A stretch of 64,000 nucleotides of DNA from a candidate division FCPU426 bacterium (GTDB lineage Bacteria > Oederibacteriota > JAAXVQ01 > JAUVAV01), in contig JBFLYH010000002.1 in NCBI GenBank assembly GCA_040756875.1, forward strand, positions 991,078-1,055,077. The letters are read 5' to 3'. Each line of letters starts with the position of its first letter. The first letter of the stretch is position 1. This document shows, one piece after another, positions 41,325 through 56,020 of this stretch. A program made the translations under genes and the position numbers. The notes beneath the pieces were generated by a model. It was not told where the DNA came from and made no database searches. It was given only the letters and a program-made list of their open reading frames with translations.

Positions 41325-44300
41325 ATGGTACTGCGCAAGCGGCAAAGCTCCATAACCCTGTTGCTTTCCTTATTATTAGTCATACCGCCCGGTACGCTGC
41401 AAGCCAAGAGCCAGCCCGAACCAACCGAGCCTTCCACCCGCCCTGAGCGCCTGACTCCCGAAATCGTCGTCCTGGTGCCGGATGTGCTGGATTCGGCCAA
41501 GACCTTAGCCAATGCCAGGCAGCGGTTGATCAAACGCGGCTTGAAATCCCGGGACGTGGTCGTGACCGCTGAACAGCCGGGGTTCAGTCGTTCGGGCGGG
41601 TTGGACCAGCAGGCGCGGCAGCTGGAAAAAATCCTGATTGATCTGAAAATCCGTCAGCCAAGCGCACGGTTGCACGTGGTCGGCAAGGGCAGCGGCGGCT
41701 TGGTGGTCCGGCAGTACCTGGCGAGGCAGGCGGGCCTCGGGCCACAGGCAGTGACCGTGGAAAGCGCGGTCGGCTTGGGCGTGCCGCACCACGGCCGCTG
41801 GTGGGCGGGCGTGGCCAGCAGCCTGGGCGCCAAGTCGCAGGCCCTGGCTGACCTGGCGCCGGGTTCTGCGTTTTTAAACCAGCTTAACCAGCCCATTGAA
41901 GCGCGCCGGGCCGAGGTCAGGCGCGTGCAGGGTGTGCTGGCCAGCCTGCGCCAGCCGAACCTGCGGGCCCAGGTCCGGGGCAAACTGTCAGCCATTGAAA
42001 GCCAGCAGGCGGACATACGCGAATCCGTGGAGCGGGCTCTGCACTTTCCACAGCGCGCCGCTTTGAGTCCTGATGACCAGAAACGCCGCCAGGAAGCGGA
42101 ACGGTTCAAGGCGAAACTCAACCGCCTTCCGGCCGCGGAAGCGCGGCACCAAGCCGCGTCCCTGGCCGCTGCCAGCCAGCGCCAGGTTCTGGCCGCGGAA
42201 AAATTCGCAGGACAATCCCTCCCTTGGCAGGCGCCGGCCCGGCAATCAACCCGTACGGCCGAAGAGGCCCTGGTTCGCGCCCAACAAACCCTGCTGGAAA
42301 AACTGTCCCAGCCCCAGGCCAAGTTGCCGGCCGGATTCCAGCCGCCGAAGACCCAAGCCCAGCCAGGGCAATGGCTTTCCGTTTTGCAGGCCCTGGAGCA
42401 CAGCAGCCAGGCTGCGGCTGAAAAAGCCGCCAGCCAGGCTGGCGGCCTGCAAAAACAATTCGCGTCCCTGGATTTCGAAGGGCTCGAAGCCCGTTTAAAA
42501 AACGCCGGCACGGAGGCAGCGGGGCGCCTGCCTGCCGACTTGCTGCAACTCAAGCCCCAGCACATGGCCAGGGACCTGGAGCGCGCCGCGCGCAAATATG
42601 AAACCGCGGCTGCGTTGGAAGCTGCCTGGCGGCAGAGCCAGGCCGGCAAAGAGCAGTGGCTCGATCAAGTGGAGCGGTTGACCCAGGTCGCGGCCAAACA
42701 GCAACTGGCCCGGGACCTGGCGGCGTACGCCGCAAAGGCCGGACTTGCGCCGGCCCGGCTGCGCGCCGGGGCGGCTGAGGCAGGGGATTTGCCCGAGCGC
42801 GCCCAGGCCGCGTACCGCGCGTGGCGCCAGAAGGAAGCCGCCCTGGACCAGGCTTTTGCCGCGGCCAAGGAACAGGGGTTGGAAACAATCGTCAAACCCG
42901 AGTTTTGGAAACTGCGCGAGCGGACGGCCCAGGTGGCTGAGCGCACCCACCAGGCGATTGCGCGCGACAGCCTAAAAGCCTGGGAAGGACTGGCAGCCCT
43001 GCGCCTGGGGCCCGCGGCCAAGGAACAGGCCATGTTCGCCCAGGCCACTGAGCACCGCCTTAACCGCGAACTGGCAGCCTGGAAGCAGGAACTGCTGAAG
43101 CCGGATTGGGAAGCGCGCTTTTCGCAGGCTGCCTCGGCCCTGAACCGCAGCCTGCCGGCGGCAGAACAGGCCGGAGCCTTGAAGCAGGCTTTAGTACAGC
43201 AGGCAGGCGCTTTGCAGTCGGCTTTGGCCGCTGTTCGTTCCGACCTGGCGGCGCGTGAGCGGCAAAGCGCCTGGGAGCGGTTGGCAGCTGACAGCCGACA
43301 GGCAGCTGCGCAGTTGCTGCAGCAACAAGCGGATCATGGCTTCGTGGCCGACGCCCTGGCTGCCGGCAATTTCCTGGCCGCCGGCAGAAAACAGGAACAG
43401 CAACGCCTGCTGGACCTGGTCAGGCAGAATGATCCGGCTGCCAGCCGTCAGGTGGCGGTGCTGGCCCAATTGGCGCTTCAGCGCCACGGGCTGCAGTCCA
43501 GGCTGCTGGAGACCGGCGGCCTGGATGCAGGGCCTGCCCCGCAGTTGCTGGAGCGGATCGCCGGGCAAGCCAAGGCCCTGGGGCTGAAGACCGCCCTGCC
43601 ACCCAAAGCAATGGAGCACCTGGCCCAGGCCCAGGAGGAGCGGCAAAACCGCTGGAAACAACTGAACACCAGCTGGAAGCGGCAGTGGTCGCAGGCTGTC
43701 CAGGAGGACCGCGAACGCAACCAGCCGGCCAAAGCCTGGTCAGCCTGCCAGGAGACAGTTGCCGTCAGCCGCAGCCTGGCTGTGCTGGAAGACTGCTCGG
43801 CCGCGCTTTCGCAAATGAAATCCTGGCGGGATATGGGAACCCAAGCCTCGGGCCAGCAAGGCCGCTGCCAGGTCCTGGAGCAGCAGTTGTCCGCTTGGCT
43901 GCAAACGTCCGGACTTGGCAGCCGGATCCCGGCCGTGCAATCAGCCGCAGCCGCGGCCCAGGAAAAATTTGCGCCCGCGGCCTGGCAAGCCATTCTCAGC
44001 CAGTGCGGCCAGAAGCAGGAACAGGCAAGCGCCAGACTGCAAAACTTGAGGCGCGAACTGGCCAGGCAGCCTGAATGGATTTTGCCGCAAGTCGCCGGAG
44101 TGTCGGAACAGCTGGCTCAGGCAGCCCAGGACCCCAGCCGGATCAAGGGCTTGTTGCTCGAAATTTCCGGCTTGCGCGAGCAAACCCAAAAACACCTGAC
44201 ACAGGCGCGGGAACAAACCCTGGAGGCGCTCTGGCCCGGACAGGGCAAGGGGAAAGCTTCGGCCCTGGGCCAGGAGTTGAATCAAGTTTTATCCAGCCTG

Positions 44301-47300
44301 CAGGACTACCGCCAGTTGAGCCGGATGAATGCCCAGGCTGATACCCTGCAAGACCTGCTGTCAGCGAAAGCGCTGTTGTGGCAGCAACAGAATCTGCAAG
44401 CCCAAGGGCTCGGAGCGGTCAAGACCCTCGAATCCCTGCTCGCCCAAACAGCCGGAATCCCGGGCAAACCCTCCGGGCAAGTCTTCAGCCAGATCACCGC
44501 CACCCTGAGCCTGATGCAAAAGCTGACTGCCAACCAGATGCAATCCGCGGGATTGCTGCCAGGCCTTATGGATCGGGAGTGCGGGATGCCGGCCAAAGCC
44601 GCGCTCCAAAAAGAATGGAGAGCCTGGCTGGACGGGCAGTTTTCCGCCCAGCAAGGCTTGGATTGGGCCGGCGGGCAGCTTCAATTAAGCACAGTGCTGT
44701 CAAACCCAGGGGCAGGCTGGCGGCAACAGACCAACGCCCTGGCCACTGGCATGCTGGAGAATCTGGTGGACCAGGCGGCTGAGCGCCAGATCAGCCTGGG
44801 CCTGGCTGAAGTGCAGCGCTTGAGCAACGAGGCGCGGGAACTGCTTTCAGCGCCTGTGCGCCAATTGCGCGCCGAACTGGGGCAATTGGGGCTGTTGGAC
44901 CCAAGGCAGGATCAGGGGCCGGGCCTGAGTATCGTGTCCTGGGCGCAGCATTTCGTGCAGCAGGGCGTGGCCCAGGGCGTGGCGCAGGCCCTGGCCAGCC
45001 TGGAGCGGACGCAGGCCCAGTTCAGCAACCGCCTGGAGCGGGGCCTGCTGGAACTCGCGCGCGCCCAGGCCACCATGGCGATCAATGCCCTGAGCGGCCA
45101 ATACGCGGGCCTGGCCGTTGAGGTGAAGCGCCTGTGGGAGGGCGTTGGGCCTGAGGCCGGCGAAGCGTTGAACCTGCAGGGATTGCTGAACGTGGCCCAG
45201 GACCAGGAGTTTCTGCAAACCTGGCAGGAAGATATCTTCAGCAAACTGGTGGCGGAGAATCCCTTGCAGGCTGACCTGGGACGGCTGGGCCAGGTTGCCT
45301 CCTCGCTTCAGGCTTTGATCGACCAGCCGGCCAGCCAGCTCGGCGACTGGCTGGTGAGGAGCGGAGTGAACCTGGGCGTGGAGCGGCTGCAGTCCCTGCA
45401 GGCCGAAGCCCAGAAGCTGCTGCACGAGGCTATGACCACGGGCGCGGTCAACGAGCTGCGGACGCGCCTGAATGCCGTTCTGCTCAAGTTGGACCAGGAA
45501 GCAGGCCGCTTGAGCCGTTATCTGGACCAGACCCTGGCCAAGCTTCCGTCCGGAGTGGTTCCCGCGGGCTTGCGGGACGCGCTGCGGGAATTGCGCGACC
45601 TGCCCGGCACCCTGGCTGCCGGGATCGACGGCCTCATGCAGGACGTGGAGAGTTACCTTGCCAACCAGGTGCTGCAGTCCGGATTTGACCGCCTGAACGC
45701 CATGCTCAACCAGTACGGCGGACAGGCGTCCTTGTGGGCCGTGGGCGCCAGGCTGCAATTGTCGCTGACCGAGATTTCCAGCCTGGGCCAAACCGCGGTG
45801 GCGCAGTTGGAAGTGTCCCTCGCGGATCTGGGGACCGGAAATCTGACCGGTTTGTGGGAAAACGTGGCAGCCGGGCTCTCGGATTTCGGCGGGAACCTTC
45901 TGAACCTGCTGCAGGATTTCGTGGCTAGCGCGAGCCCGGTGGATTTGGGCGGGTTTCTCAACATCACGGGCCTGGCTGATTCGCTGTGGGCCTCGGCCGG
46001 CGAAGTGCTGGGGCAATTCACGGGCCTGTTCGAGCTACAGGTGCCAATGGCCGGCGATTGGTGGCAGGCAGACGAGCTGTGGCAGCAGTTGTCCGGCATT
46101 TTCAATGCGGAGAACTGGCAGCTTGATTTCTATCAGGCTGCGGACGGGTTCCTGCGCAATATCAGCGAAAACCTGGAAAACCTGCTCAACTCGGGTCTGG
46201 CCTGGGTGAACGACCGCTGGACAGAATACATGAACCAGGCGCGGGAATACTGGGACATCCTGGCCGGCGGGCCTGGCCGGTGGTGGGATGAACTGGCCAG
46301 CGGCCGCTGGGACCAGAGCCTGGGCAACCTGATGACGCAATACCTGCCGCCTGAATACCAGCCTGCTGTGAGCGCCCTGCAGCAGGTGCGCCTGGCGTTC
46401 AACGCGGACTTTCAGCTGAGCGCGGAGTGGATTACGAACATTTTGGACAACTTAAGCGCCTACCTGAGCGAGGACGCGCGGGCCGTGTACCAGCAGGTGC
46501 GCGAGTTATATGATACGGGCAGCGAATATTATTCCGCTGGCAGCGACATCCTCAACGCCATTTCGAGCGGGGATGTCACCAGCGTGCTGACCAACATCAG
46601 CCGCCTGGGCAGGTTTCATTTCAACACCGGCGGACAGATGTACCAGTGGGGCAAAGGCCGGGCCAATAAAAAAGGGAAGTACGACGGCCAGGCCCTGTCG
46701 GCTGCCAGCGAGGAAGAAGTGCTGGCAGCGTACGTCAATGCCCTCCCAGCCAGCATGCGCGAACAGGCCCTGCGGATGCTGGAAAACGGAACCCTGCCCG
46801 GCAGTAATCCCGAACGCGAAATCGACGTCGCGGACTACGACCCGGACGTGGACGGCCAGCCAGCTGGCCCGGCAGCCTATGAAGCCGCCCAGGAAGCTGA
46901 CGCGTCTGCCACTTTGCCAGATGTAGCAGCCGCATCCGCTTCGGATCGTCACCCCGGCGTGCCTGAAGCCGGGGTCCAGGAGCAAACTCCCCCCCGCAGG
47001 TCCCCCTCTTTGCCAAAGAGGGGGCGGGGGGAGTTGGATAGTGGCTTAGGCGGGAACGACAGTCAAGGCTCAACAACCGATGAGGGTGATGCTTCTGCTG
47101 CCGGCACCCAGCCAGGCGGTGAAGGCGAATCCGGCCCCCCAGACCTCGGCCCGCCGCGCATGTCCGGCGTGCCCACCCCGCCGCCTGTAAAGCAGAGCTT
47201 GTTGGATAAGATGAAAAATGTATACACCAACCTAAATCCAGTTGGATTATCCAAGAACGCCGCCCAGGCTGCCGCACCCGATGGGGCTAAAAAGGTGTCG

Positions 47301-48104
47301 AAGAAAGCTAAAGAAGCTTTGAAAAAAGCAGCCGATAAAACAGCAACTATGGCTAAAAATGCCAAAGATAATCTGGGTATGACGGTAGATGCTTTCAATA
47401 ATACCAAGGGTTTGGATAAAAAAACCAGAATAGCTCAGGGTGTTGGGACAGGGGTGTTGTCAGGGGATTTATTGGACAATCCCGACCCTGCTTCATCTGA
47501 ATTCGATCCAGATGGCCCGGCTATTTTATATATCAATGGGATGAGAACGCCGAATGATAAAGCTGAAAAAGATCAAAAAGCTTTATTTGATAAATGTGGC
47601 TATAAAGTTGCGCGGGTTCAAAACAACTCAAGTTTGGAAGGCGCAGGCGACATTGCTCAAATAGCTGGTCAAGAACAGGGCAACATTGATATCACGGCAA
47701 TTCGCACGGCAGCTATGATTCGGAAAGGGCTTGAAAACCGTGATGAAATTTATGTGGTTGCGCACAGTCAGGGTACCAAAACATTTGAACAGGCATTGGC
47801 GCTATTAACCCCCGAAGAACGTAAGAAAATCAAGTTTCAAGGGTTTGGGGGAGAGCAGTATATTGATAAAAATAAATATGGATTGGCAAGTGCCCGTAAT
47901 GTGCGGCATGAAAAAGACCCTGTGCCAAAAGTCAATGACGCAAGGATAGGTAACAAAGATTGGGAAACCCTCGGGCATCAACCTGAAGTGAAACCGGGGA
48001 CAGAACCTGGGATTCTGGATTATCATGATTTTCGAAAGACTTATGTGGATAGCGTCGAATTGCCCGTTAATACGAACGCAACACGAAAGGAAGATGACCA
48101 ATGA
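41325..48104 (+). CDS. Giant secreted protein (2259 aa): pseudo alpha/beta-hydrolase, long helical stalk, C-terminal lipase-like domain; candidate polymorphic toxin
   Basis: Signal peptide; LHVVGKGSGGLVVRQY, LG.PHHG, LAPGS.FL..LN at N-terminus; Q/A/L-rich helical middle; C-terminal YINGM, VVAHSQG, DPVP, YHDF. Confidence 0.75.
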   Translation: MVLRKRQSSITLLLSLLLVIPPGTLQAKSQPEPTEPSTRPERLTPEIVVLVPDVLDSAKTLANARQRLIKRGLKSRDVVVTAEQPGFSRSGGLDQQARQLEKILIDLKIRQPSARLHVVGKGSGGLVVRQYLARQAGLGPQAVTVESAVGLGVPHHGRWWAGVASSLGAKSQALADLAPGSAFLNQLNQPIEARRAEVRRVQGVLASLRQPNLRAQVRGKLSAIESQQADIRESVERALHFPQRAALSPDDQKRRQEAERFKAKLNRLPAAEARHQAASLAAASQRQVLAAEKFAGQSLPWQAPARQSTRTAEEALVRAQQTLLEKLSQPQAKLPAGFQPPKTQAQPGQWLSVLQALEHSSQAAAEKAASQAGGLQKQFASLDFEGLEARLKNAGTEAAGRLPADLLQLKPQHMARDLERAARKYETAAALEAAWRQSQAGKEQWLDQVERLTQVAAKQQLARDLAAYAAKAGLAPARLRAGAAEAGDLPERAQAAYRAWRQKEAALDQAFAAAKEQGLETIVKPEFWKLRERTAQVAERTHQAIARDSLKAWEGLAALRLGPAAKEQAMFAQATEHRLNRELAAWKQELLKPDWEARFSQAASALNRSLPAAEQAGALKQALVQQAGALQSALAAVRSDLAARERQSAWERLAADSRQAAAQLLQQQADHGFVADALAAGNFLAAGRKQEQQRLLDLVRQNDPAASRQVAVLAQLALQRHGLQSRLLETGGLDAGPAPQLLERIAGQAKALGLKTALPPKAMEHLAQAQEERQNRWKQLNTSWKRQWSQAVQEDRERNQPAKAWSACQETVAVSRSLAVLEDCSAALSQMKSWRDMGTQASGQQGRCQVLEQQLSAWLQTSGLGSRIPAVQSAAAAAQEKFAPAAWQAILSQCGQKQEQASARLQNLRRELARQPEWILPQVAGVSEQLAQAAQDPSRIKGLLLEISGLREQTQKHLTQAREQTLEALWPGQGKGKASALGQELNQVLSSLQDYRQLSRMNAQADTLQDLLSAKALLWQQQNLQAQGLGAVKTLESLLAQTAGIPGKPSGQVFSQITATLSLMQKLTANQMQSAGLLPGLMDRECGMPAKAALQKEWRAWLDGQFSAQQGLDWAGGQLQLSTVLSNPGAGWRQQTNALATGMLENLVDQAAERQISLGLAEVQRLSNEARELLSAPVRQLRAELGQLGLLDPRQDQGPGLSIVSWAQHFVQQGVAQGVAQALASLERTQAQFSNRLERGLLELARAQATMAINALSGQYAGLAVEVKRLWEGVGPEAGEALNLQGLLNVAQDQEFLQTWQEDIFSKLVAENPLQADLGRLGQVASSLQALIDQPASQLGDWLVRSGVNLGVERLQSLQAEAQKLLHEAMTTGAVNELRTRLNAVLLKLDQEAGRLSRYLDQTLAKLPSGVVPAGLRDALRELRDLPGTLAAGIDGLMQDVESYLANQVLQSGFDRLNAMLNQYGGQASLWAVGARLQLSLTEISSLGQTAVAQLEVSLADLGTGNLTGLWENVAAGLSDFGGNLLNLLQDFVASASPVDLGGFLNITGLADSLWASAGEVLGQFTGLFELQVPMAGDWWQADELWQQLSGIFNAENWQLDFYQAADGFLRNISENLENLLNSGLAWVNDRWTEYMNQAREYWDILAGGPGRWWDELASGRWDQSLGNLMTQYLPPEYQPAVSALQQVRLAFNADFQLSAEWITNILDNLSAYLSEDARAVYQQVRELYDTGSEYYSAGSDILNAISSGDVTSVLTNISRLGRFHFNTGGQMYQWGKGRANKKGKYDGQALSAASEEEVLAAYVNALPASMREQALRMLENGTLPGSNPEREIDVADYDPDVDGQPAGPAAYEAAQEADASATLPDVAAASASDRHPGVPEAGVQEQTPPRRSPSLPKRGRGELDSGLGGNDSQGSTTDEGDASAAGTQPGGEGESGPPDLGPPRMSGVPTPPPVKQSLLDKMKNVYTNLNPVGLSKNAAQAAAPDGAKKVSKKAKEALKKAADKTATMAKNAKDNLGMTVDAFNNTKGLDKKTRIAQGVGTGVLSGDLLDNPDPASSEFDPDGPAILYINGMRTPNDKAEKDQKALFDKCGYKVARVQNNSSLEGAGDIAQIAGQEQGNIDITAIRTAAMIRKGLENRDEIYVVAHSQGTKTFEQALALLTPEERKKIKFQGFGGEQYIDKNKYGLASARNVRHEKDPVPKVNDARIGNKDWETLGHQPEVKPGTEPGILDYHDFRKTYVDSVELPVNTNATRKEDDQ
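46985..47035. repeat. REP-like hairpin embedded in frame in the giant ORF
   Basis: AACTCCCCCCCG...CCCCCTCTTT-GCC-AAAGAGGGGG-CGGGGGGAGTT. Confidence 0.6.
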
Positions 48105-48601
48105 CCACCGAAAAAAAACTTGCTATAGTTGGGATAGTTGCCCTATGCGGGCTTATAGTATTTCAAATATGGTCACATGGCACAACCAAGACTATTAATG
48201 ATGATCCAATATACGGGAAATTAGTTGGAAAAACATATGAAACAAGAACAGATTTGTATTTATCTCAAGATCGCCAGTCTGCCAATTATTCAATTAAAAT
48301 TCCGGGAGTCTTATATCCTGAAATAAAAGAAATAAAAGAGTATCCGCATGGTACTGCGCACAATATTATTCACAAATTAATTCCTTCTAAAACTAGAATT
48401 AAAATTAGCAATGTTGTTTTAACTAACGTGCCTTTCCGAGGGACAGACCTCTGGCTGAAAGCCAGATTTGAAGACTCAAGCATTTATGAAGGAGAAGTTG
48501 ATGCTACATTTATCTCCGACTTTAGCAGCTATCACGAAAAAATGGATTCCAAATACGTCACCGAAATCACGCCTGAGGGGGAACCGGTTAATGCCAAATA
48601 A
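48101..48601 (+). CDS. Small N-terminally anchored protein, candidate immunity protein
   Basis: ATGA overlap with giant ORF; AT-rich like the toxin tip; single N-terminal TM; no recognised family. Confidence 0.7.
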   Translation: MTTEKKLAIVGIVALCGLIVFQIWSHGTTKTINDDPIYGKLVGKTYETRTDLYLSQDRQSANYSIKIPGVLYPEIKEIKEYPHGTAHNIIHKLIPSKTRIKISNVVLTNVPFRGTDLWLKARFEDSSIYEGEVDATFISDFSSYHEKMDSKYVTEITPEGEPVNAK

Positions 48602-49532
48602 AACCAAAATATTCTTTGCCAGTCTTTGCTGCCTTATTCCTTTAACTGCCTGCTTGCAACAGGATAAAATAGTCAACAAGCTCGCTGGTATCTACGATGG
48701 CCTTAGTTACACTTCCCCTTATGGCTTCTTCTCCACGCACCTCAAGGATTGGGCAGATCTCAAAAGCGTAAAAGACGGCCAGGAAAACAACGGCGCCACA
48801 ATGGTGCTGAACTTTCAGGATAAATCCATGAACGAATATCAAATCGCAGCTTCTTTGGCTAATCCGGAGCTCAATGCCCACGACTTGGTCACCCGCATGG
48901 TGGCCAAAGGACAGGCAGAAGGCAAGAACGTGGTGGCAGCCACCACGGCTGACGGCGAGGAATGCCTGATGGCCCAATCCCTGCTGAAAGAAAAAGATTC
49001 AGACAAGGGCTATGCGCTGATGACGGTCATTTTTCTACGAAAAGGCACGATATTCGATTTAGGCATCAAAACCCACCCGGAAAAGGAACCGGAAAAAGCC
49101 GCGGAGTTGGCCAAACAGTGCTTCCGGGATCTATGGAACCGGTCGGCCTTGCGCGGGCAAGTGCAGGATTTTGAAAAATATCCCGAAGATATTGATCCCC
49201 GCGTGCCGGTGGTTACCCTGGCAGCCGGCCGGGTGGCTGTGGAAATGGGACTGGAAGCAGTGATTGAACGGGGCAAGAAGGCAATTGTCAGGATAATAGG
49301 CAAGGGCAGTGAAGGGCCGATGACCTTGAGCCTGGGCATTGCCGCCAAAGAGAACGAAATCATCACGACTGAAGCAGTATCCAGCAAAGCCAATGACATG
49401 AAGACCGTAAGCCAGATGCAGAGCGAGTTCTATCGCAAATTCGGCGAAGCAGTTGCTGCCGAGCAACTCACTATAAACCGTTCCAATGCCTTTGACCCGG
49501 ACCTTGCGCAATTGCCGGTAAAGGGGAAATAG
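48591..49532 (+). CDS. Hypothetical lipoprotein
   Basis: SD GAGGGG; lipobox LTAC; overlaps previous gene by 11 nt. Confidence 0.7.
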   Translation: MPNKTKIFFASLCCLIPLTACLQQDKIVNKLAGIYDGLSYTSPYGFFSTHLKDWADLKSVKDGQENNGATMVLNFQDKSMNEYQIAASLANPELNAHDLVTRMVAKGQAEGKNVVAATTADGEECLMAQSLLKEKDSDKGYALMTVIFLRKGTIFDLGIKTHPEKEPEKAAELAKQCFRDLWNRSALRGQVQDFEKYPEDIDPRVPVVTLAAGRVAVEMGLEAVIERGKKAIVRIIGKGSEGPMTLSLGIAAKENEIITTEAVSSKANDMKTVSQMQSEFYRKFGEAVAAEQLTINRSNAFDPDLAQLPVKGK

Positions 49533-49624
49533 GGCCGGTTTTGTATGACAATTACAGCACTGAATGAGATAAAATAAACTCAATTTTATTCGCTGCTGCA
49601 AGTCAAAATGATATCCTTCAAAGG

Positions 49625-50218
49625 ATGATGATTATGCCGAGAAAAACCATTGTGGTTTTTATAATGGCCTTTTTTACATCTTTCCCGCTCCATGCCGCCA
49701 CTTCCGACCAGCATGGTCTGGAGCCAGTGGTTGTCAATGCCGGGGGATCGACCCTTTCCGGCAATGGCCGGCAGTTACTGGATTCCATAGGCGAATCCAT
49801 TATTAACCAAACCTGGGGAAGCTCCTTCTCGATCCAAGCCGGTTTTTTCAGCGATTATTTTATTCTGCCTCCCACGCCGACCGTAACTCCCACGGTAACA
49901 GCCACCAGCACGCCCATACGCGGTTTTGGCGGAGAATTGCTGAGCGAATCATGGGTTTATGCCGCCCCCAATCCTATCCGGGGATTTCGCGCCAATATCG
50001 TCTATCACCTGGCTGAACCGGCGGAAGTGGAGATCAAGGTATTTACGGTCAACAATGACCTGGTTATTTCCAAGCATTGGGATAATGTTGCGGCTGGCGA
50101 AAACCATTGGTATTGGAACACCTCAGGAATATCCAATGGGGTATATTTGCTGTTGGTTAAAGCCAAGGGGCAGGGCAGGAGCACGATTATAAAGAAAAAA
50201 ATCGCATTAGTGCATTGA
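49625..50218 (+). CDS. Secreted protein with Pro/Thr linker and FlgD-Ig / T9SS-CTD-like C-terminal domain
   Basis: Signal peptide; VVNAGG...SIGE...QAGFF; PTPTVTPTVTATSTP; YAAPNP, I.Y.L, V.IKVFT, W.......GVY. Confidence 0.75.
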   Translation: MMIMPRKTIVVFIMAFFTSFPLHAATSDQHGLEPVVVNAGGSTLSGNGRQLLDSIGESIINQTWGSSFSIQAGFFSDYFILPPTPTVTPTVTATSTPIRGFGGELLSESWVYAAPNPIRGFRANIVYHLAEPAEVEIKVFTVNNDLVISKHWDNVAAGENHWYWNTSGISNGVYLLLVKAKGQGRSTIIKKKIALVH

Positions 50219-50225
50219 TATAATA

Positions 50226-50255
50226 ATTCCCCTCCTGTCCAGCAGGGAGGGGAAT
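50226..50255. repeat. CCCCTCC/GGAGGGG hairpin (repeat or terminator-like)
   Basis: ATTCCCCTCC-10nt-GGAGGGGAAT. Confidence 0.55.
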
Positions 50256-50316
50256 GTAGAAGAAAGGGAAGGGGCCAAGTACGTAAACCATTTGTAGTTT
50301 AAACAGGAGGCGGGAA

Positions 50317-51150
50317 ATGAAAAAGATAGCAGGAGTATTGGCAGTATTGCTCGGTCTTTCAGCGCAAATAGCGCTGGCGGACATTCCGGGAACCATCAAT
50401 TACCAAGGCCGGCTGACAGATACTGCCGGTAATCCGGTGGCAAACGGAACGTATGGGGTAACCTTTGCGCTGCATTACACGGCCGAAGGCAACAGCCCAA
50501 CAGGTTGGAGCGAAGTGCAAAACGTGGAAACAAAAGGTGGATATTTTATTATTGCCCTGGGCAGCCAGAACTCGCTGAGTGGCTTGGGTTTCAATTACCC
50601 GTATTATTTGGAGATCCATGTTGCAGGTGACGCCCAATCCATGAGCCCAAGGCAGCTTCTGAGCAGTGTGCCGTATGCCATGAGGGCGAGGGAAGCTACG
50701 CATGCTACTGCGGCCGATAGTGCTACAACTGCGAATAACGCGAGCAATCTAGGCGGGTTTGCTGCAAATACTTTTATTAGGAATATTGCAAATTCAGTAT
50801 CTAATACAAACCTTCAATCAGGTTCAGTTACGCAGGACAAGGCGCAGTTCGCACCAGCGGTTTCTTTCAATGGCGCATTAATATCTTATCCGAAAATAGC
50901 AGCTGGTTATATTGATACCAATGAAAGCGGGGAAGCTAATGTCGCTTTTTCGGGGATTACTTTTTCTCAGCCTCCGGTAATATCATGTGTTATATATCAT
51001 ACCAATCCCGCTTATATCAATCCATCGGTCGTTACAATCGAGAGCGTCTATTCGACGGGGTTTTACGCTAGATCATGGTATCAGAATGGGTCCGGCACAC
51101 ATGTCCAGACGGGGCCACTTAGGTTTTCGTATATTGCTATTGGACAATAA
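50317..51150 (+). CDS. Secreted tail-fibre-like / adhesin protein (INYQGRL-type N-domain, lectin-like tip)
   Basis: SD AGGAG; signal peptide; IPGTINYQGRLTD..GNP, PRQ.L.SVPYA..A, fibre-like repeats, C-terminal F...FSQPPV...Y.A.G. Confidence 0.7.
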   Translation: MKKIAGVLAVLLGLSAQIALADIPGTINYQGRLTDTAGNPVANGTYGVTFALHYTAEGNSPTGWSEVQNVETKGGYFIIALGSQNSLSGLGFNYPYYLEIHVAGDAQSMSPRQLLSSVPYAMRAREATHATAADSATTANNASNLGGFAANTFIRNIANSVSNTNLQSGSVTQDKAQFAPAVSFNGALISYPKIAAGYIDTNESGEANVAFSGITFSQPPVISCVIYHTNPAYINPSVVTIESVYSTGFYARSWYQNGSGTHVQTGPLRFSYIAIGQ

Positions 51151-51159
51151 ACAATAATT

Positions 51160-53055
51160 ATGAAATTGAATTCAACTGACATTAAGTATTGGGAAATACT
51201 ATTTTGGGGTCTGGTGTTACTCAGCTTAAAAACATACGCCGTTCCTGTGACTCCTGGGTTGGATCCGTCGTGGAACTTGGGCATGAATTTAATTTCTGCC
51301 TATGGAATTCAATGCGGCAAAGAAGTGTTTTTCAATTATGGACCACTTTTCCCATTAATCAACCTGTTGCCAGTAAATCCAATTTATGAAACATGGGTAA
51401 TCATCACCTGTCTCATTCAGGGGATATTTTTCTATAGCATTTGGTCGTTAGTTAAAAATAATGATGCAAAAACACGGGAGTATACTGTTGGTGGAATCAT
51501 ATTCCTTCTTCTAATTAGTTCGTCAGTTGGGATTGAAAACATATTAGTATTCACACCAATAATCTGCTTGCTCAATTATCACGAGAACGACAAAGCTAGA
51601 TGGCTCTGGATTGCCGCGGGAGTTACTTCGATATCTGCGTTAACGAAGACTATTCCGGGTTTGTGTGGATTTGGAGCGGTTGTTTTATATAGCATTTACA
51701 GGATTATTACCGATAGAAACGGGAGTTGGAAAATAGGCATTTTTGGCACAATATTAATCTATCTCACGATGTGGTTGCTTATTTATCGTGATTTCGGCGG
51801 GGTGATTGGTTATTGGAAAGGTGCCTTGGAATTATCATCGGGTTTTTCGACGGCAATGGCTTTGTATTCAAACAATGATTGGGTTTTCTTGGGGCTTTTT
51901 GTGTTATCTCTTGTGGTGATGCCATGGCTATTAAAGAACTCAAAGATATGGTTGCTTTTTTTACTGGCGTCGCCAATGATATTTTATGAATGGAAGCATG
52001 GAATTGTACGTCAATGTGCCCCAAGCATCGCATCTGCGATCGTATTTATGTATACATTTACATTGTTTATAGCGATCTATTATTTTGTTCAGAAACGACG
52101 TGTAACTTGCAAATTAACGGTTATTTTACTGCCACTGATATTTTTATCTGTTTTTTATCAAAGAACGTATCACGAGTCTTGGTTGACTGTGCTCCAATAC
52201 TCTATATTCCAGCCTATACATCAAATGCAAAGGCATCTACTGATAAATTGGCCAAATAAAAGCAAAACGTTAAAGGAGTCTCGACGGAATGTAGAAAGAT
52301 ACGCGGTTGATAAAATAGTGCGAGATAAAATTGGCAGTGAAACTGTTGACTGTTATCCTTGGGAAGTAACATATATATTCGCTAATGATTTTAAATGGAA
52401 ACCACGGCCAGTATTTCAAGCTTATACAACATATACTCCGTGGTTACAAAAGCAAAACGCCGAATACCATCGATCAAAAACATCGGCTCGTTATTTACTC
52501 TGGCATTATGATCACGAAGATGAACCGTTTATTAGCGGAAAGGGATTGGTGGAGATTGACAATAAATACTTATTGAACACCGAACCCGCCGCATTATATC
52601 AAATAATCAGTATTTATTCGCCGGTTTATCAAAGTGAAAGATTGATATTGTTTGAAAAAAGCGAAGAAAATAGCATTCGAAGGGTAATCGAGAATAACAA
52701 ATATGAAGCCAAATGGGGTGAGTGGATTGCCGTATCCACAAATCCTGGTGAAATTATTCGAGCGCAAATAAATGTAAAGAGGCATTTAATAGGACAAATA
52801 CGGAAGTTTCTATATAAAGACGGCGATTGCCATATTTATTATAAAACGGATGAAAATGAAGAAATCAAATACAGATTGAATATATTAAATGCGTCTGAAG
52901 GTATTTGGGTTTCCCCTTTGATAAACAAAATGGACAAACCCAACGATGGCAGACATATTAAAGAAATAAAATTGGTTAAATCGCCTAATACGTATTTTGA
53001 AGACCTATACTCAATTCGTTGGGAACGAATAATTATTCAAAAGAGAGACTTGTGA
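51160..53055 (+). CDS. AT-rich multi-TM GT-C-like membrane protein
   Basis: GLDPSW...G....FNYGPL near N-terminus; about 11 TM; extracytoplasmic YPWE, PRPVFQAY. Confidence 0.7.
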   Translation: MKLNSTDIKYWEILFWGLVLLSLKTYAVPVTPGLDPSWNLGMNLISAYGIQCGKEVFFNYGPLFPLINLLPVNPIYETWVIITCLIQGIFFYSIWSLVKNNDAKTREYTVGGIIFLLLISSSVGIENILVFTPIICLLNYHENDKARWLWIAAGVTSISALTKTIPGLCGFGAVVLYSIYRIITDRNGSWKIGIFGTILIYLTMWLLIYRDFGGVIGYWKGALELSSGFSTAMALYSNNDWVFLGLFVLSLVVMPWLLKNSKIWLLFLLASPMIFYEWKHGIVRQCAPSIASAIVFMYTFTLFIAIYYFVQKRRVTCKLTVILLPLIFLSVFYQRTYHESWLTVLQYSIFQPIHQMQRHLLINWPNKSKTLKESRRNVERYAVDKIVRDKIGSETVDCYPWEVTYIFANDFKWKPRPVFQAYTTYTPWLQKQNAEYHRSKTSARYLLWHYDHEDEPFISGKGLVEIDNKYLLNTEPAALYQIISIYSPVYQSERLILFEKSEENSIRRVIENNKYEAKWGEWIAVSTNPGEIIRAQINVKRHLIGQIRKFLYKDGDCHIYYKTDENEEIKYRLNILNASEGIWVSPLINKMDKPNDGRHIKEIKLVKSPNTYFEDLYSIRWERIIIQKRDL

Positions 53056-53193
53056 CAATAATTCTTCTGATGAATCCCACTTTTACGCTCGCTCTTGGTA
53101 TCAACCAAACAATGACCGCTTCCAACAGAAGGGACCGATTTATTTTTGGTGGATAGCCGTCGGCAAAAGGTGAAAACCGAAAGGACGAAAGGC

Positions 53194-54195
53194 ATGAAGC
53201 GGATTATTGTTGGTATAATAGGATTAATGATGCTCGTCATATGTATTCGCGGGTTTTGGTATTATCCATTGTTTCGAAAACCGCCTATTTTGGAAATGAT
53301 CTCCGACGTCCCGTGTAATATTCCTTATATAAAACTTAAAAATCAAAAAGGTATTTTAAAAAGATATTTTGTTGTTATTGGCGATAAAAAGGCTTCCTTT
53401 CCAGATGCGGGGCAAAAAGGCTGGTCAGAATGGGCAAGTAGTCATGAGATATATATCGATAGCGTGAAAAATTGGATAAAGGTATTCATTGATGAAAAGT
53501 GGTTGATATTCAGAAAAAAAACAGCGTACCTATTCTACCAGCAACCTGGCGGGTTCAATCAATACACAGTATTATTCCGTCATAGATATCAGGGTGACAA
53601 TGAAAAACTTAAAAATAAATACAATATTTATTTTATAGGGGATAGCATCACCCGGGGATTGTATGCGATAAATGAAAGCAATAGTTATTCAGCGCTAGTG
53701 AACGCGAAAGCGGGCATGAAAGGTACGCCTGTAAAATATGCAATTAAAGGGATTGGGATTAGTGACATAGATAAAACTCAAATATTATCGGATTTAACTA
53801 AAAATCAGCCAGAATTAATTATTATCGAGTTGGGTACAAATGATTGGAAGGAAATGGATATAGAGAAATTCAAAAGGAAGTATGAGTCAATGCTCTCGGC
53901 GATAGTCGAAAACGCCAAAGGGACGAAGACAGTTTTACTTGGCCTTTGGGGTGGCTATAAAGCTCTGCCATATGACGCTGTCATTTATGATATAGCGAAG
54001 CACTATCAATATGAATATGTATATTTGGAAGATATTTATGAGGAAAGCGAATATCATAATGAGGAAAACACCGCAACTTCTTTTGGACCTGCCGACTTTT
54101 ACCATCCGTCAGATAAAGGTCATAGGGAAATTGCTAATAGGGTTATATCGGCGATTGTATCGCTTGAAAATAAGCCTTCGCAAGTTCAACGATGA
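53194..54195 (+). CDS. Membrane-anchored SGNH/GDSL hydrolase (esterase or O-acetyltransferase-like)
   Basis: N-terminal TM; FIGDSIT, ELGTND, DFYHPS. Confidence 0.88.
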   Translation: MKRIIVGIIGLMMLVICIRGFWYYPLFRKPPILEMISDVPCNIPYIKLKNQKGILKRYFVVIGDKKASFPDAGQKGWSEWASSHEIYIDSVKNWIKVFIDEKWLIFRKKTAYLFYQQPGGFNQYTVLFRHRYQGDNEKLKNKYNIYFIGDSITRGLYAINESNSYSALVNAKAGMKGTPVKYAIKGIGISDIDKTQILSDLTKNQPELIIIELGTNDWKEMDIEKFKRKYESMLSAIVENAKGTKTVLLGLWGGYKALPYDAVIYDIAKHYQYEYVYLEDIYEESEYHNEENTATSFGPADFYHPSDKGHREIANRVISAIVSLENKPSQVQR

Positions 54196-54484
54196 AGTAC
54201 AGCACTTAACGAGCTGGAGATCTCCGCGCTATAACAGCTACCATACAGATTAAGAAAAAGGTTTGCATTTGGTAAATTAGCCAGATAAAAGAAGATAAAT
54301 GTGCTGACAATTAAAGGAAAAGTGCTGTCACTGCGCTTGCGTAATATAATATAAACCAATTTAGTTAATAAAAAATGCGATTATCACTCGGTTCAATAGA
54401 TTACTAAACTACCTATTATTTCCTGGAACCCACTCCAATAAAAATATTAGAATAAGCTGGCATTTTAATGGTCCGGGAGAACCA

Positions 54485-56020
54485 ATGGACGTGAAATCCT
54501 GGCTTGAAAAAAACGGGAAATGGGCTGGGTGGGCGGGTTTGGCTGCACTTGGGGTGGTGATGGTGCTGATCCGTATGCACTTTGTCGCCGAACCCCTGGA
54601 GCGCAATTACACGGGCTGGGCCTACATCGCCCATCAACTGCTTGCCGGCGAACGTCTCTATACCGACCTTTGGGACATCAAGCCGCCTGGGATTCATATT
54701 CTTTATGTGTTGGGGCATATGCTGTGGGGTTACAAAGCTTCTGCGCTGGTGTATTTGGGCATGCTCCCGGCCCTGGCCTCGCTGCTGCTCATCTACTTTA
54801 TCTTGAATCGCATCTCCAACCGCGCGCTTGCTTTGCTGGGATCGTCGTTTTGGGCCTTGGCTGCCAATGCCCTCCAACTCCAGGGGAACATGCCTGCCAG
54901 CGAGGTATTCATCAATGCCTTTAATCTGTTGGCTATCTGGGGTCTGGTTGAATACTTTTATAAGAAGAACCTCCTCTATCTGTGGCTGGCTGGCGCGGGC
55001 ATGGCGTTTTCATCCTATATCAAGATGCACGCCTTATTCCCGTTTTTACTGTTCTGCCTGTATATCCTTGGGAACAACCTGAAAGATAAAGAACGCCCCT
55101 GGCTTTCAACCACGCTGCGCGAATATATTGCGTTCTCAGTACCCAGCCTGGTTCTGTGGCTGGGGACGTTCGCTTATTTCTACCTGCAACACCGCTTTGC
55201 TGATTTTTACGGAACCGTGTTTGTCGAAATCAGCGGCCACGCGGGCAATATCTTCGGGAACTTTTTCAGATATTTGACGCACAAAAGCCTGTTGCTGCCC
55301 GGATTCATGGTTGAAGTCAAAATCCTGGTGTTGTTTACCTTAGGCTGGGCGTTGCTCAGCTTGGGCGACGCGAAGCCCACGGTGGTCGGCCGTCGGTTTT
55401 GGTTCGTGGTGCTGCTGGGGGAATGCCTTTCTTTGAGCAGCGCGCAGCAATTCTTTGCTTCATATTATCTGCTCTTGCTGCCAGGCATGGTCATTTGCTC
55501 GGTTTTGTTTGTCCGGGAAGTGTTTGAGTTGCTGAAGACCCAATCAGCTCCGGCGCGCTGGCGGATCACGGGGGTTTTGGCTGCGGTCGTCCTTGCCTAC
55601 CTTGGGGCCTATCAAATCAGAGCTTTGAGTCTGACCATGGAACAGGTCACCCGGCTCAAATACAACAGCCTGGAATTCGAACATGCCCGCACTCTGGGTG
55701 AAATCGTCAAAGGCCTGACCCGGCCCGGGGATCTGGTCAGCGGATATTTTTCCAACCCTTCGCTGTACTTCTACAGCGGCCGCAAATGCGCCACCCGGGC
55801 GATATTTTTCGCGCCCAGCACGCAAGTTTTGGTCACACCCGAGGACAGGACCCGCCAGTATTATCAAGACCTGGTTGCCCGTCCACCCGCGGTTTTTGTC
55901 TGGGCCACTTCCTACGGCGACATCAACGGGAGCATGGTCGGGCCGTTTATACATGATAATTATCAATTGGTGCAGCAATATATGTATTATGATATTTATC
56001 AACGAAAACGGGCGGATTAA
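54485..56020 (+). CDS. PMT/ArnT-like GT-C membrane glycosyltransferase
   Basis: IAHQLL.G..LY.DLWD.KPPG; many TM; LYFYSGR soluble C-terminal domain. Confidence 0.8.
   Translation: MDVKSWLEKNGKWAGWAGLAALGVVMVLIRMHFVAEPLERNYTGWAYIAHQLLAGERLYTDLWDIKPPGIHILYVLGHMLWGYKASALVYLGMLPALASLLLIYFILNRISNRALALLGSSFWALAANALQLQGNMPASEVFINAFNLLAIWGLVEYFYKKNLLYLWLAGAGMAFSSYIKMHALFPFLLFCLYILGNNLKDKERPWLSTTLREYIAFSVPSLVLWLGTFAYFYLQHRFADFYGTVFVEISGHAGNIFGNFFRYLTHKSLLLPGFMVEVKILVLFTLGWALLSLGDAKPTVVGRRFWFVVLLGECLSLSSAQQFFASYYLLLLPGMVICSVLFVREVFELLKTQSAPARWRITGVLAAVVLAYLGAYQIRALSLTMEQVTRLKYNSLEFEHARTLGEIVKGLTRPGDLVSGYFSNPSLYFYSGRKCATRAIFFAPSTQVLVTPEDRTRQYYQDLVARPPAVFVWATSYGDINGSMVGPFIHDNYQLVQQYMYYDIYQRKRAD

Follow-up and report, generated by a model that had tools for sequence, protein, structure and literature searches.

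The window analysed here is a stretch of 64,000 nucleotides (nts) from a Firestonebacteria-type bacterium of candidate division FCPU426 (assembly GCA_040756875.1, contig JBFLYH010000002.1), corresponding to G000:C2:991078-1055077 of the source genome G000, which comprises 3.22 Mb in 7 contigs and is rated 100% complete. At positions 41325-48104 of the window, on the forward strand, one open reading frame (ORF) with an ATG start encodes a giant protein of 2259 amino acids (aa), closely followed by two smaller genes. The locus probably represents a polymorphic toxin carried by a previously undescribed, lineage-specific giant scaffold of a diderm bacterium. The giant gene is not a chance ORF, because a full-length homologue with 57% identity and homologues in seven further genomes exist. 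Its parts, numbered by the residues of the giant protein, and the two genes that follow it are:

41325..41405 (+): Sec-type signal peptide MVLRKRQSSITLLLSLLLVIPPGTLQA, residues 1-27 of the translation, with a predicted cut after LQA
41445..41939 (+): alpha/beta-hydrolase-like domain of the Lipase_2/PGAP1/DUF676 type, residues ~41-205
41940..44741 (+): Q/A/L/R-rich region, weakly conserved and presumed helical, residues ~206-1139
44742..46709 (+): conserved scaffold core, predicted all-helical by AlphaFold2 at low confidence, residues 1140-1795
46710..47141 (+): P/G/D/E low-complexity linker, residues ~1796-1939, of which length and sequence vary between genomes
46944-47043 (+): in-frame repeat element of ~100 nts inside the linker, with a 35-nt palindrome at 47001-47036
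47142..47183 (+): junction motif DLGPPRMSGVPTPP, separating the constant body from the exchangeable cassette
47184..47369 (+): pre-tip of low guanine-cytosine (GC) content, KNVY..NP.GLSKNAA.AAAPDGAKK type, the same type standing before other tips
47370..48101 (+): tip, a predicted minimal alpha/beta hydrolase with Ser2148 (47766-47768), Asp2198 (47916-47918) and His2234 (48024-48026)
48101..48601 (+): 166-aa membrane-anchored protein, candidate cognate immunity protein, ATGA overlap, within the low-GC block
48591..49532 (+): lipoprotein, 313 aa from ATG 48591, with the lipobox LTAC; a neighbour, probably not tip-specific

An earlier note, drawn up from the sequence of this stretch alone, had described the 2259-aa ORF, the signal peptide, a Q/A/L-rich body, a P/G/D/E linker and hydrolase motifs. 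All are present in the translation, and the motifs YINGM, AHSQG (47760-47774), DPVP and YHDF all lie in the C-terminal domain. Its observation that the DNA becomes AT-richer from about 47200 holds in 90-nt windows, where the GC content drops from 0.72 (47115-47204) to 0.48 (47205-47294) and is 0.30-0.53 beyond, which places the break at ~47200, directly after the junction motif. The low GC extends further than had been noticed, at 0.36-0.49 on to ~55500, against 0.57-0.71 over the rest of the window (2-kb windows). The 166-aa gene, said to start on the stop codon of the giant gene, does so inside CAATGA at 48101, and the lipoprotein gene, said to overlap it, most likely starts at ATG 48591, 11 nts before its end. 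Absent from that note was a second alpha/beta-hydrolase-like domain, at residues ~41-205 and apparently without its nucleophile.

A fall in GC of 0.10-0.25 was found at every tip examined (G000, G001, G002, G003, G008 and G010). In the sister species G001, the low GC is limited to the pre-tip, the tip and the gene of the anchored protein. The lipoprotein gene of the window is intermediate (0.48-0.54). The signal-like N-terminus is kept in the six homologues that have an N-terminal end, and no lipobox cysteine could be read in the translation, either in or after the signal peptide of the giant protein.

A constant body with exchangeable ends

A search with the whole protein gave matches in 10 of 41 related genomes. 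Of 99 genomes of the phylum searched with a profile of the best conserved stretch (residues 1575-1795), nine gave a match, each with a single gene and all within one order: G000, six of ten further members of its family (f1) and two of four members of the sister family (f2), with none among the 84 genomes elsewhere. No paralogue of the giant gene was found in G000. G001 encodes a homologue of 2234 aa, 57% identical over the body, and the homologues of the seven further genomes are 25-37% identical. In other genera, homologues of 2359-2438 aa share 25-28% identity overall. In windows of 100 residues, identity to other genera is 10-26% within residues 200-1100 and peaks at 50-57% in residues 1601-1700, the Trp-rich stretch 1580-1720 being the best conserved part of the giant protein. 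The core alignments A2 and A5 contain 26 invariant columns, and a search for loci with alignment A4 returned three genome loci and one metagenome locus. A word-based protein search with residues 1-1900 returned one relative only and missed homologues found later, so it is uninformative on rarity.

The body corresponds to no family in Pfam, NCBIfam or PHROGs. In the same three collections, RHS, two-partner secretion (TPS)/haemagglutinin, LXG, PAAR, VgrG and MuF all gave no match on the giant protein. AlphaFold2 modelling of residues 1140-1795 (10 sequences) yielded helices only, with a mean predicted local distance difference test (pLDDT) of 51.3; a comparison of the core with a protein atlas gave a best score of 0.82, which is uninformative. 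One NCBI assembly named only as ‘bacterium’ contains four partial or shortened copies of the scaffold (P0161, P0162, P0164 and P0165) with many in-frame repeat insertions of the VGA(D/N).. type, and P0162 (1389 aa) stops soon after the junction motif, without a tip.

For residues ~41-205, all Pfam matches are below cut-off (Palm_thioest 19.1 bits, Hydrolase_4 17.1 and DUF7379 15.9), while the protein atlas gave a score of 0.93, with the best 10 of 10 family-bearing matches in one clan. When aligned to lipase 5h6b, the domain has K-G opposite the H-S of the enzyme. The nucleophile elbow reads GKGSGG here and AKGTGG in relatives, versus GHSxGG in active enzymes. Because K-G replaces H-S and KG[ST]GG is kept at the elbow in all six homologues with an N-terminus, this lipase-like domain has most likely lost its nucleophile.

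The body is common to all C-terminally complete homologues to about residue 1790 and is followed by the variable linker and the junction motif. The junction consensus PPRxG(V/I)P(T/M)PP takes the form DLGPPRMSGVPTPP in G000, LSPPRGGIPMPP in genus g2 and DRGMIGRVPMPP in G003. A regular-expression search found it in 5 of 9 homologues, the G003-type sequences having the variant GRVPMPP. Between G000 and G001, the junction DNA is identical at 38 of 41 positions (hand count), versus 57% protein identity overall. After the junction, at least four unrelated low-GC tip types occur on one scaffold:

Tip type 1: alpha/beta hydrolase, carried by G000 and G001
Tip type 2: beta-rich domain ending ..GEAHIHLDKL.., carried by G002, G008 and G010
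Tip type 3: domain with ..KYHQ..GREVIYDG..DPRY.GTYNY.., carried by G003 contig C50 and protein P0161
Tip type 4: Ntox46 domain (Pfam, 40 bits against a cut-off of 25) that also matches TNT below threshold, carried by P0163, which has a G003-type core

The beta-rich tip and the third tip have neither a PDB sequence match nor a family; the homologues of G004, G011 and G013 end at contig ends before their tips. The pre-tip segment also varies, with at least three kinds that are freely combined with the tips. The type found in the window also stands before other tips, namely in contigs C35 and C48 of G003, in metagenome contig L032 and in P0161. Other scaffold members have KTWADPRR..KAEKVN repeats in this position, and the pre-tip of G011 is 48% identical to that of P0163.

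Different cassettes behind one junction are seen within one metagenome-assembled genome (MAG), G003, in which the sequences of contigs C35, C48 and C50 agree at the junction and then lead into three distinct cassettes. C50 consists of the body with the third tip, and C35 and C48 start at the junction and lead into two distinct beta-rich cassettes with partner genes of their own. C35 and C48 are 93% identical over the first 166 aligned nts and unalignable afterwards, and C48 and C50 are 88.5% identical over 156 nts. No orphan cassette was found in G000.

A separate observation concerns the metagenome contig L032 (3013 nts), which is composed of nts 1-359 of C48 (L040) joined to the reverse complement of its nts 668-2092, the joint truncating the giant ORF after DTLKQ. 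A shufflon-type inversion was considered and not retained: with just 8 nts of inverted microhomology at the joint, a chimera of assembly or amplification is as likely as a real inversion of a cassette.

The hydrolase tip and the genes downstream

An exhaustive HMMER search with residues 2016-2259 returned 195 protein clusters at E<=1e-3, including 93 at E<=1e-10. In the best 150 of these 195 clusters, the domain is located at or near the C-terminus of proteins of 89-3481 residues, and none of them aligned to the giant protein before residue 1951. Nine long carriers were scanned, of which three are RHS-repeat proteins (P0045, P0075 and P0101), one has a RES domain and five have no Pfam family. 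Several short matches contain DPxGL, a mark of the end of the RHS core, directly before the tip domain. The tip family, with its 195 clusters, is absent from Pfam, in which neither Cutinase, DUF2235 nor any other Tle family matched the tip at E<=10. The hydrolase tip was found in 2 of the 99 genomes of the phylum, which together with its low GC argues for horizontal acquisition.

In an alignment of 40 sequences, Ser133 and Asp183 (Ser2148 and Asp2198 of the giant protein) do not vary and His219 (His2234) hardly does; NG (G57), D94 and HSQG (132-135) are kept as well. The AlphaFold2 model of the tip has a mean pLDDT of 92.8 and a predicted template modelling score (pTM) of 0.90. With this model, Foldseek retrieved a Trichoderma cutinase (4pse, E 1.4e-4), Bacillus LipA and an Archaeoglobus lipase, and VIA-align retrieved lipases, cutinases and esterases at Z 10-11.3. 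As many as 562 chains reach Z>=5, hence the match is to a generic alpha/beta-hydrolase core. A profile search of PDB sequences placed the SQG elbow of the tip on GYSQG of cutinase 4psc, over 48 residues (E 0.0012). The NG, HSQG, D and H of the tip agree with the signature printed for Tox-ABhydrolase2 (NG, [DE], [KR], HSxG, D, H), a domain of RHS and FilH toxins according to PMC3482391, the comparison being with the printed signature. The tip, which also ends RHS proteins, is read as a toxin-type module with a Ser-Asp-His alpha/beta-hydrolase fold predicted from alignment and model, for which ‘lipase’ is a fold-level call.

The 166-aa protein begins with a single hydrophobic helix (LAIVGIVALCGLIVFQIW) and has a counterpart of 163 aa in G001. 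Between the two genomes, identity amounts to 57% for the body, 47% for the tip, 26% for the 166-aa protein and 77% for the lipoprotein. Six relatives of the 166-aa protein, all of 166 aa, 55-83% identical, are all metagenomic. Because its gene overlaps the stop codon of the giant gene, belongs to the GC block of the tip and diverges fastest (26%), the 166-aa protein is likely the cognate immunity protein. Complex prediction for the tip with residues 27-166 of this protein returned ‘weak support’ (median score 0.35, best control 0.00). Of 80 solved complexes 58 attained the mark in question, as did 2 of 110 mismatched pairs, but at scores <=0.60 it was attained by just 7 of those 80 and by both mismatches. 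Runs agreed in at least 0% of contacts, and the pLDDT of the partner was at least 78.

The gene that follows the tip differs between tip types. The beta-rich tip is followed by a membrane protein of 108-111 aa with three hydrophobic stretches, copies of which are 37-62% identical, and the third tip by the gene of a 181-aa lipoprotein, which overlaps the stop codon by 1 nt. Hence the three tip types with downstream DNA are accompanied by three unrelated small genes, each overlapping or abutting the stop codon; this comparison covers three of the four tip types, the Ntox46 tip being without DNA context. G000 contains LpxC and Omp85 genes (both Omp85 matches on contig C1, not beside the giant gene) and is therefore taken as diderm, so that an anchored or lipoprotein immunity protein would face the periplasm. 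As all three partners are membrane proteins or lipoproteins, the periplasm would be the site of action of these tips.

The lipoprotein encoded next was considered as a second, tip-specific immunity protein and rejected, given its 77% identity between G000 and G001 and the presence of its family in relatives devoid of the giant gene. This family occurs in 9 of 21 relatives, including G006, G007, G009 and G012, in which the giant core was not found, and in G003 it is located on a different contig from the giant gene. The lipoprotein is therefore a neighbour and, judging from this distribution, probably not tip-specific. Some of its relatives lie 4-8 kb from standalone TadE-like genes (G003:C11, G005:C28 and G006:C274), which hints that the family may belong with a Tad-like system and not with the toxin.

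Cassette relatives and surroundings

Two other genes of G000 contain a match to the pre-tip shared by P0163 and G011, with 41-42% identity (E 2e-23 and 2e-19). Both are located outside the window:

G000:C1:570473-572431 (L042:4477-6432), (+): TadE-fused gene
G000:C2:153521-155542 (L043:4022-6037), (-): TadE-fused gene

The two proteins, of ~650-670 aa, start with a TadE-like pseudopilin domain (PF07811 at 25.3 and 23.6 bits, where the cut-off is 22.9), followed by a low-complexity linker, the pre-tip and a low-GC variable end, and each gene is overlapped by a small downstream ORF. G001 has three TadE-fused genes with other ends, the matches stopping at residues 496-529 of 671. These genes look like another family of polymorphic toxins in the same genomes, one with cassette parts in common with the giant protein. 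The link passes only through other scaffold members, since the C-terminal 534 residues of the giant protein itself have no significant similarity to the TadE-fused proteins. A literature search on TadE and polymorphic toxins found no description of such a fusion. In addition, a 645-aa open frame at G000:C2:553724-554146 (-), also outside the window, matches only the C-terminal tip of the TadE-fused protein (residues 515-657, 35% identity) and may be a third carrier of that tip, with a different N-terminus.

Downstream of the toxin cassette, a low-GC island (0.35-0.50) extends over 49600-55500. It encodes a small protein with a sub-threshold match to a type IX secretion system (T9SS) sorting domain (49625-50218), a protein with an INYQGRLTD motif (50317-51150), a 631-aa multi-pass membrane protein, a 511-aa membrane protein and a 349-aa protein that is SGNH-like by eye only (53146-54195). 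The island is missing at the corresponding place in G001 and partly recurs 3′ of the giant gene in G002, G008 and G003:C48.

Contigs from four metagenome runs (sludge, digester and other; four studies) were aligned to positions 46000-49600. In each of the four runs, very short contigs contain the junction (47142-47223) and differ from it at 2-4 positions in ~42-67 nts. One run covers 47323-48652 on a contig of 1340 nts with 115 differences, and another covers 47323-48207. The segment from 48178 or 48191 to 48604 is covered in three runs with 10-14 differences; one of these is an RNA library, of which the contig over 48191-48604 (run X12) is no proof of transcription. Other habitats hence also harbour relatives of the tip and of its partner. 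Most of 46000-46800 had no contig at 90% likeness among those listed for the four runs, which is no evidence that the scaffold is absent. The 35-nt palindrome of the linker has four other copies in its own genome, and the linker repeat is covered by many loose-ended contigs in all four runs.

Interpretation and comparison with known systems

Three properties of polymorphic toxins were tested for and found at this locus: a homologous N-terminal region is followed by unrelated C-terminal domains; the toxin modules are shared with other scaffolds, as seen for the hydrolase from RHS proteins and for the end of P0163 from its Pfam Ntox46 match; and the immediately downstream gene changes with the tip, over three tip types. 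The first and third correspond to a check that the earlier note had set beforehand, namely that homologues of residues 1-1900 should carry different C-terminal domains and then different small genes. That note had also proposed a toxin-type tip, which agrees with the same domain ending RHS proteins, and a possibly new scaffold without RHS, CdiA haemagglutinin, LXG, PAAR, VgrG or MuF motifs, which the database searches support. Two of its proposals stand in part. Of the lipase-like tip, the confident alpha/beta-hydrolase model and the triad remain, with ‘lipase’ reduced to the fold, and of the coupled immunity-like genes, the 166-aa gene behaves as a cognate partner while the lipoprotein does not.

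In the mechanism proposed here, Sec would export the giant protein, and the dead lipase-like domain may anchor it in the envelope. This role is suggested by analogy with the inactive transglutaminases located directly behind signal peptides, for which anchoring was proposed (Zhang et al. 2012, PMC3482391). The mostly helical body of ~1750 residues would then present or move the tip, which would hydrolyse an ester-linked component of the envelope in a competitor's periplasm, most likely a membrane lipid. In the producer and its kin, the tip would be blocked by the 166-aa protein, held by an anchor in the inner membrane and mostly exposed to the periplasm, and recombination at the junction would bring in new tips. 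Ntox46/TNT-type domains act on NAD+, a universal cofactor, and as one sister protein bears such a tip, the body may also serve tips with cytoplasmic targets. It is conceivable, although we consider it doubtful, that the body is in itself a self-contained and hitherto unknown delivery device, i.e., a stalk anchored by the dead lipase that takes toxins into a neighbour (into its cytoplasm for the Ntox46/TNT type), and that the related cassettes on TadE-like pseudopilins form a second presenting fibre, similar to Tad or type II secretion systems (T2SS).

Several observations weigh against a polymorphic toxin. In the only close homologue (G001), the tip and both neighbours are the same as in the window, hence swapping is visible only between genera and inside the MAG G003, of which the cassettes are either orphans in one genome or variants pooled from strains. 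The tips of G004, G011 and G013 are lost to contig ends, and five of the nine long tip carriers lack any Pfam family that would identify them. The model of the core (pLDDT 51.3) is too poor to interpret, and the complex prediction for the tip and the 166-aa protein is a weak pass. The scaffold has no recognisable module for outer-membrane export or translocation, and the sheath gene VipB/TssC of type VI secretion systems (T6SS) was not found in G000, a genome rated complete; two secretin genes are present elsewhere in G000 with nothing linking them to the locus, and a search for SprA_N without a match is uninformative, as control genomes were also without a match. Finally, genes for envelope glycosylation surround the locus, with partial synteny across the family, and a role in the envelope would fit this setting too.

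This last point also suits the alternative that survives best, in which the giant helical protein would be structural, at the cell surface or in the periplasm, and act as an exo-enzyme on a stalk or as a component of the envelope. Its esterase- or cutinase-like end would serve nutrition or the remodelling of the cell's own envelope, and the different ends in other genera would be niche adaptations. The neighbours are suited to it, with a PMT_2/PA14 protein upstream and GT-C-like membrane, INYxGxLTD and T9SS-tail proteins downstream, and G002, G008 and G003 have some of these surroundings in common with it. The nearest solved folds, those of cutinases and lipases, belong to ordinary secreted enzymes, and large surface proteins with lipases are noted in PMC3482391. 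However, the same tip family ends RHS-repeat proteins and Ntox46 is found on another member of the scaffold family. In addition, a small gene of its own is tightly coupled to each tip type for which downstream DNA was seen, and the GC break with a shared junction indicates cassette exchange, not slow divergence. An exo-enzyme is hence considered unlikely.

A toxin aimed at prey or at eukaryotic cells, with downstream genes that only protect the producer during export, is less probable still. The universal cofactor of Ntox46/TNT-type tips would suit such a target. Copies of Tox-ABhydrolase2 are known from an amoeba endosymbiont and from fungi (PMC3482391), and no paper on the lifestyle of Firestonebacteria was among the literature matches listed. 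Yet membrane or lipoprotein partners that are specific to a tip and co-vary with it are an interbacterial pattern, the genome of 3.2 Mb is of free-living size, and the whole stretch was found in one groundwater metagenome run, maybe its source. That the junction of high-GC body and low-GC tip is an assembly chimera is suggested by the abrupt break, the metagenomic origin of the assemblies and the apparently rearranged contig L032, but its probability is close to nil, as independent assemblies of G000 and G001 contain the same fusion, within contigs of 1.13 and 1.19 Mb, the open frame continues with no stop, the junction is linked to this tip in fragment P0004 as well and every other homologue has the same GC pattern.

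A polymorphic toxin on this scaffold remains the preferred reading. The scaffold comes from a candidate phylum without a cultured member and from a genome in which no T6SS sheath gene was found. The locus also raises the question of how a giant protein exported by Sec crosses two outer membranes. A clean junction motif with at least four tips is suited to the study of cassette exchange, and the tip and the 166-aa protein form a candidate toxin/immunity pair. Literature searches on Firestonebacteria and on polymorphic toxins gave no description of the toxin or scaffold among the matches listed, which leaves its absence from print unproven.

Among known systems, the Tle lipase effectors of the T6SS are paired with membrane or periplasmic Tli immunity proteins. 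The locus shares with them an alpha/beta hydrolase and a membrane or periplasmic protective protein, which points to periplasmic action, and chain 9cys appears at Foldseek rank 38. Unlike Tle1-4, the tip has no match to DUF2235 or another Tle family (E<=10) and its elbow is AHSQG, not GxSxG; PAAR, VgrG and Hcp parts, which would mark T6SS cargo or specialised effectors, were not found on the giant protein. It also differs from the LXG/WXG toxins of type VII secretion systems (T7SS) by the lack of a Pfam match, its Sec signal peptide and its diderm host. SitA-type toxins, transferred by outer-membrane exchange, have a lipoprotein signal with a lipobox Cys, whereas the signal peptide of the giant protein has no Cys. 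The best structural matches of the tip, cutinases (CE5) and Bacillus LipA, superpose at VIA Z 11.0-11.2 over 147-165 residues with a root-mean-square deviation of 3.3-3.8, but with a sequence identity of just 10-18%, over a generic core and without a Pfam Cutinase match.

The RHS/YD toxins carry the same alpha/beta-hydrolase tip family at the C-terminus (three of the nine long carriers) behind a conserved motif, DPxGL at the RHS boundary versus PPRxGxPxPP in the giant protein. In contrast to them, the giant protein has no RHS_repeat match (PF05593, E<=0.1) and is predicted to be helical instead of forming a beta-shell. With CdiA/CdiI (see also Table 1 of PMC3482391), it has in common a giant exported protein, a conserved junction, an exchangeable C-terminal domain and an immunity gene, here a candidate, immediately downstream. 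Alternative CdiA/CdiI cassettes share the junction, a pattern that the contigs of the MAG G003 may represent too. The differences are the lack of a TPS domain and of haemagglutinin repeats (Pfam and NCBIfam) and of an adjacent CdiB-like gene. The Sec/T2SS class of polymorphic toxins (MAFB-N, the Microscilla N-terminal domain and APD1/APD2), as described in PMC3482391, is the one whose architectural definition the locus fits; it resembles the giant protein in a signal peptide, a lineage-restricted constant part, polymorphic C-terminal toxin domains, adjacent immunity genes and an inactivated enzyme domain after the signal peptide. Unlike these families, the giant protein has a constant part of ~1950 residues that is mostly helical, contains a dead lipase-like domain, has no Pfam match and is restricted to one order. 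Polymorphic toxins are known on few bodies (RHS, CdiA, LXG, T6SS parts, MafB and others), to which the locus adds a different build; what is new here is the scaffold, the type of tip being already known.

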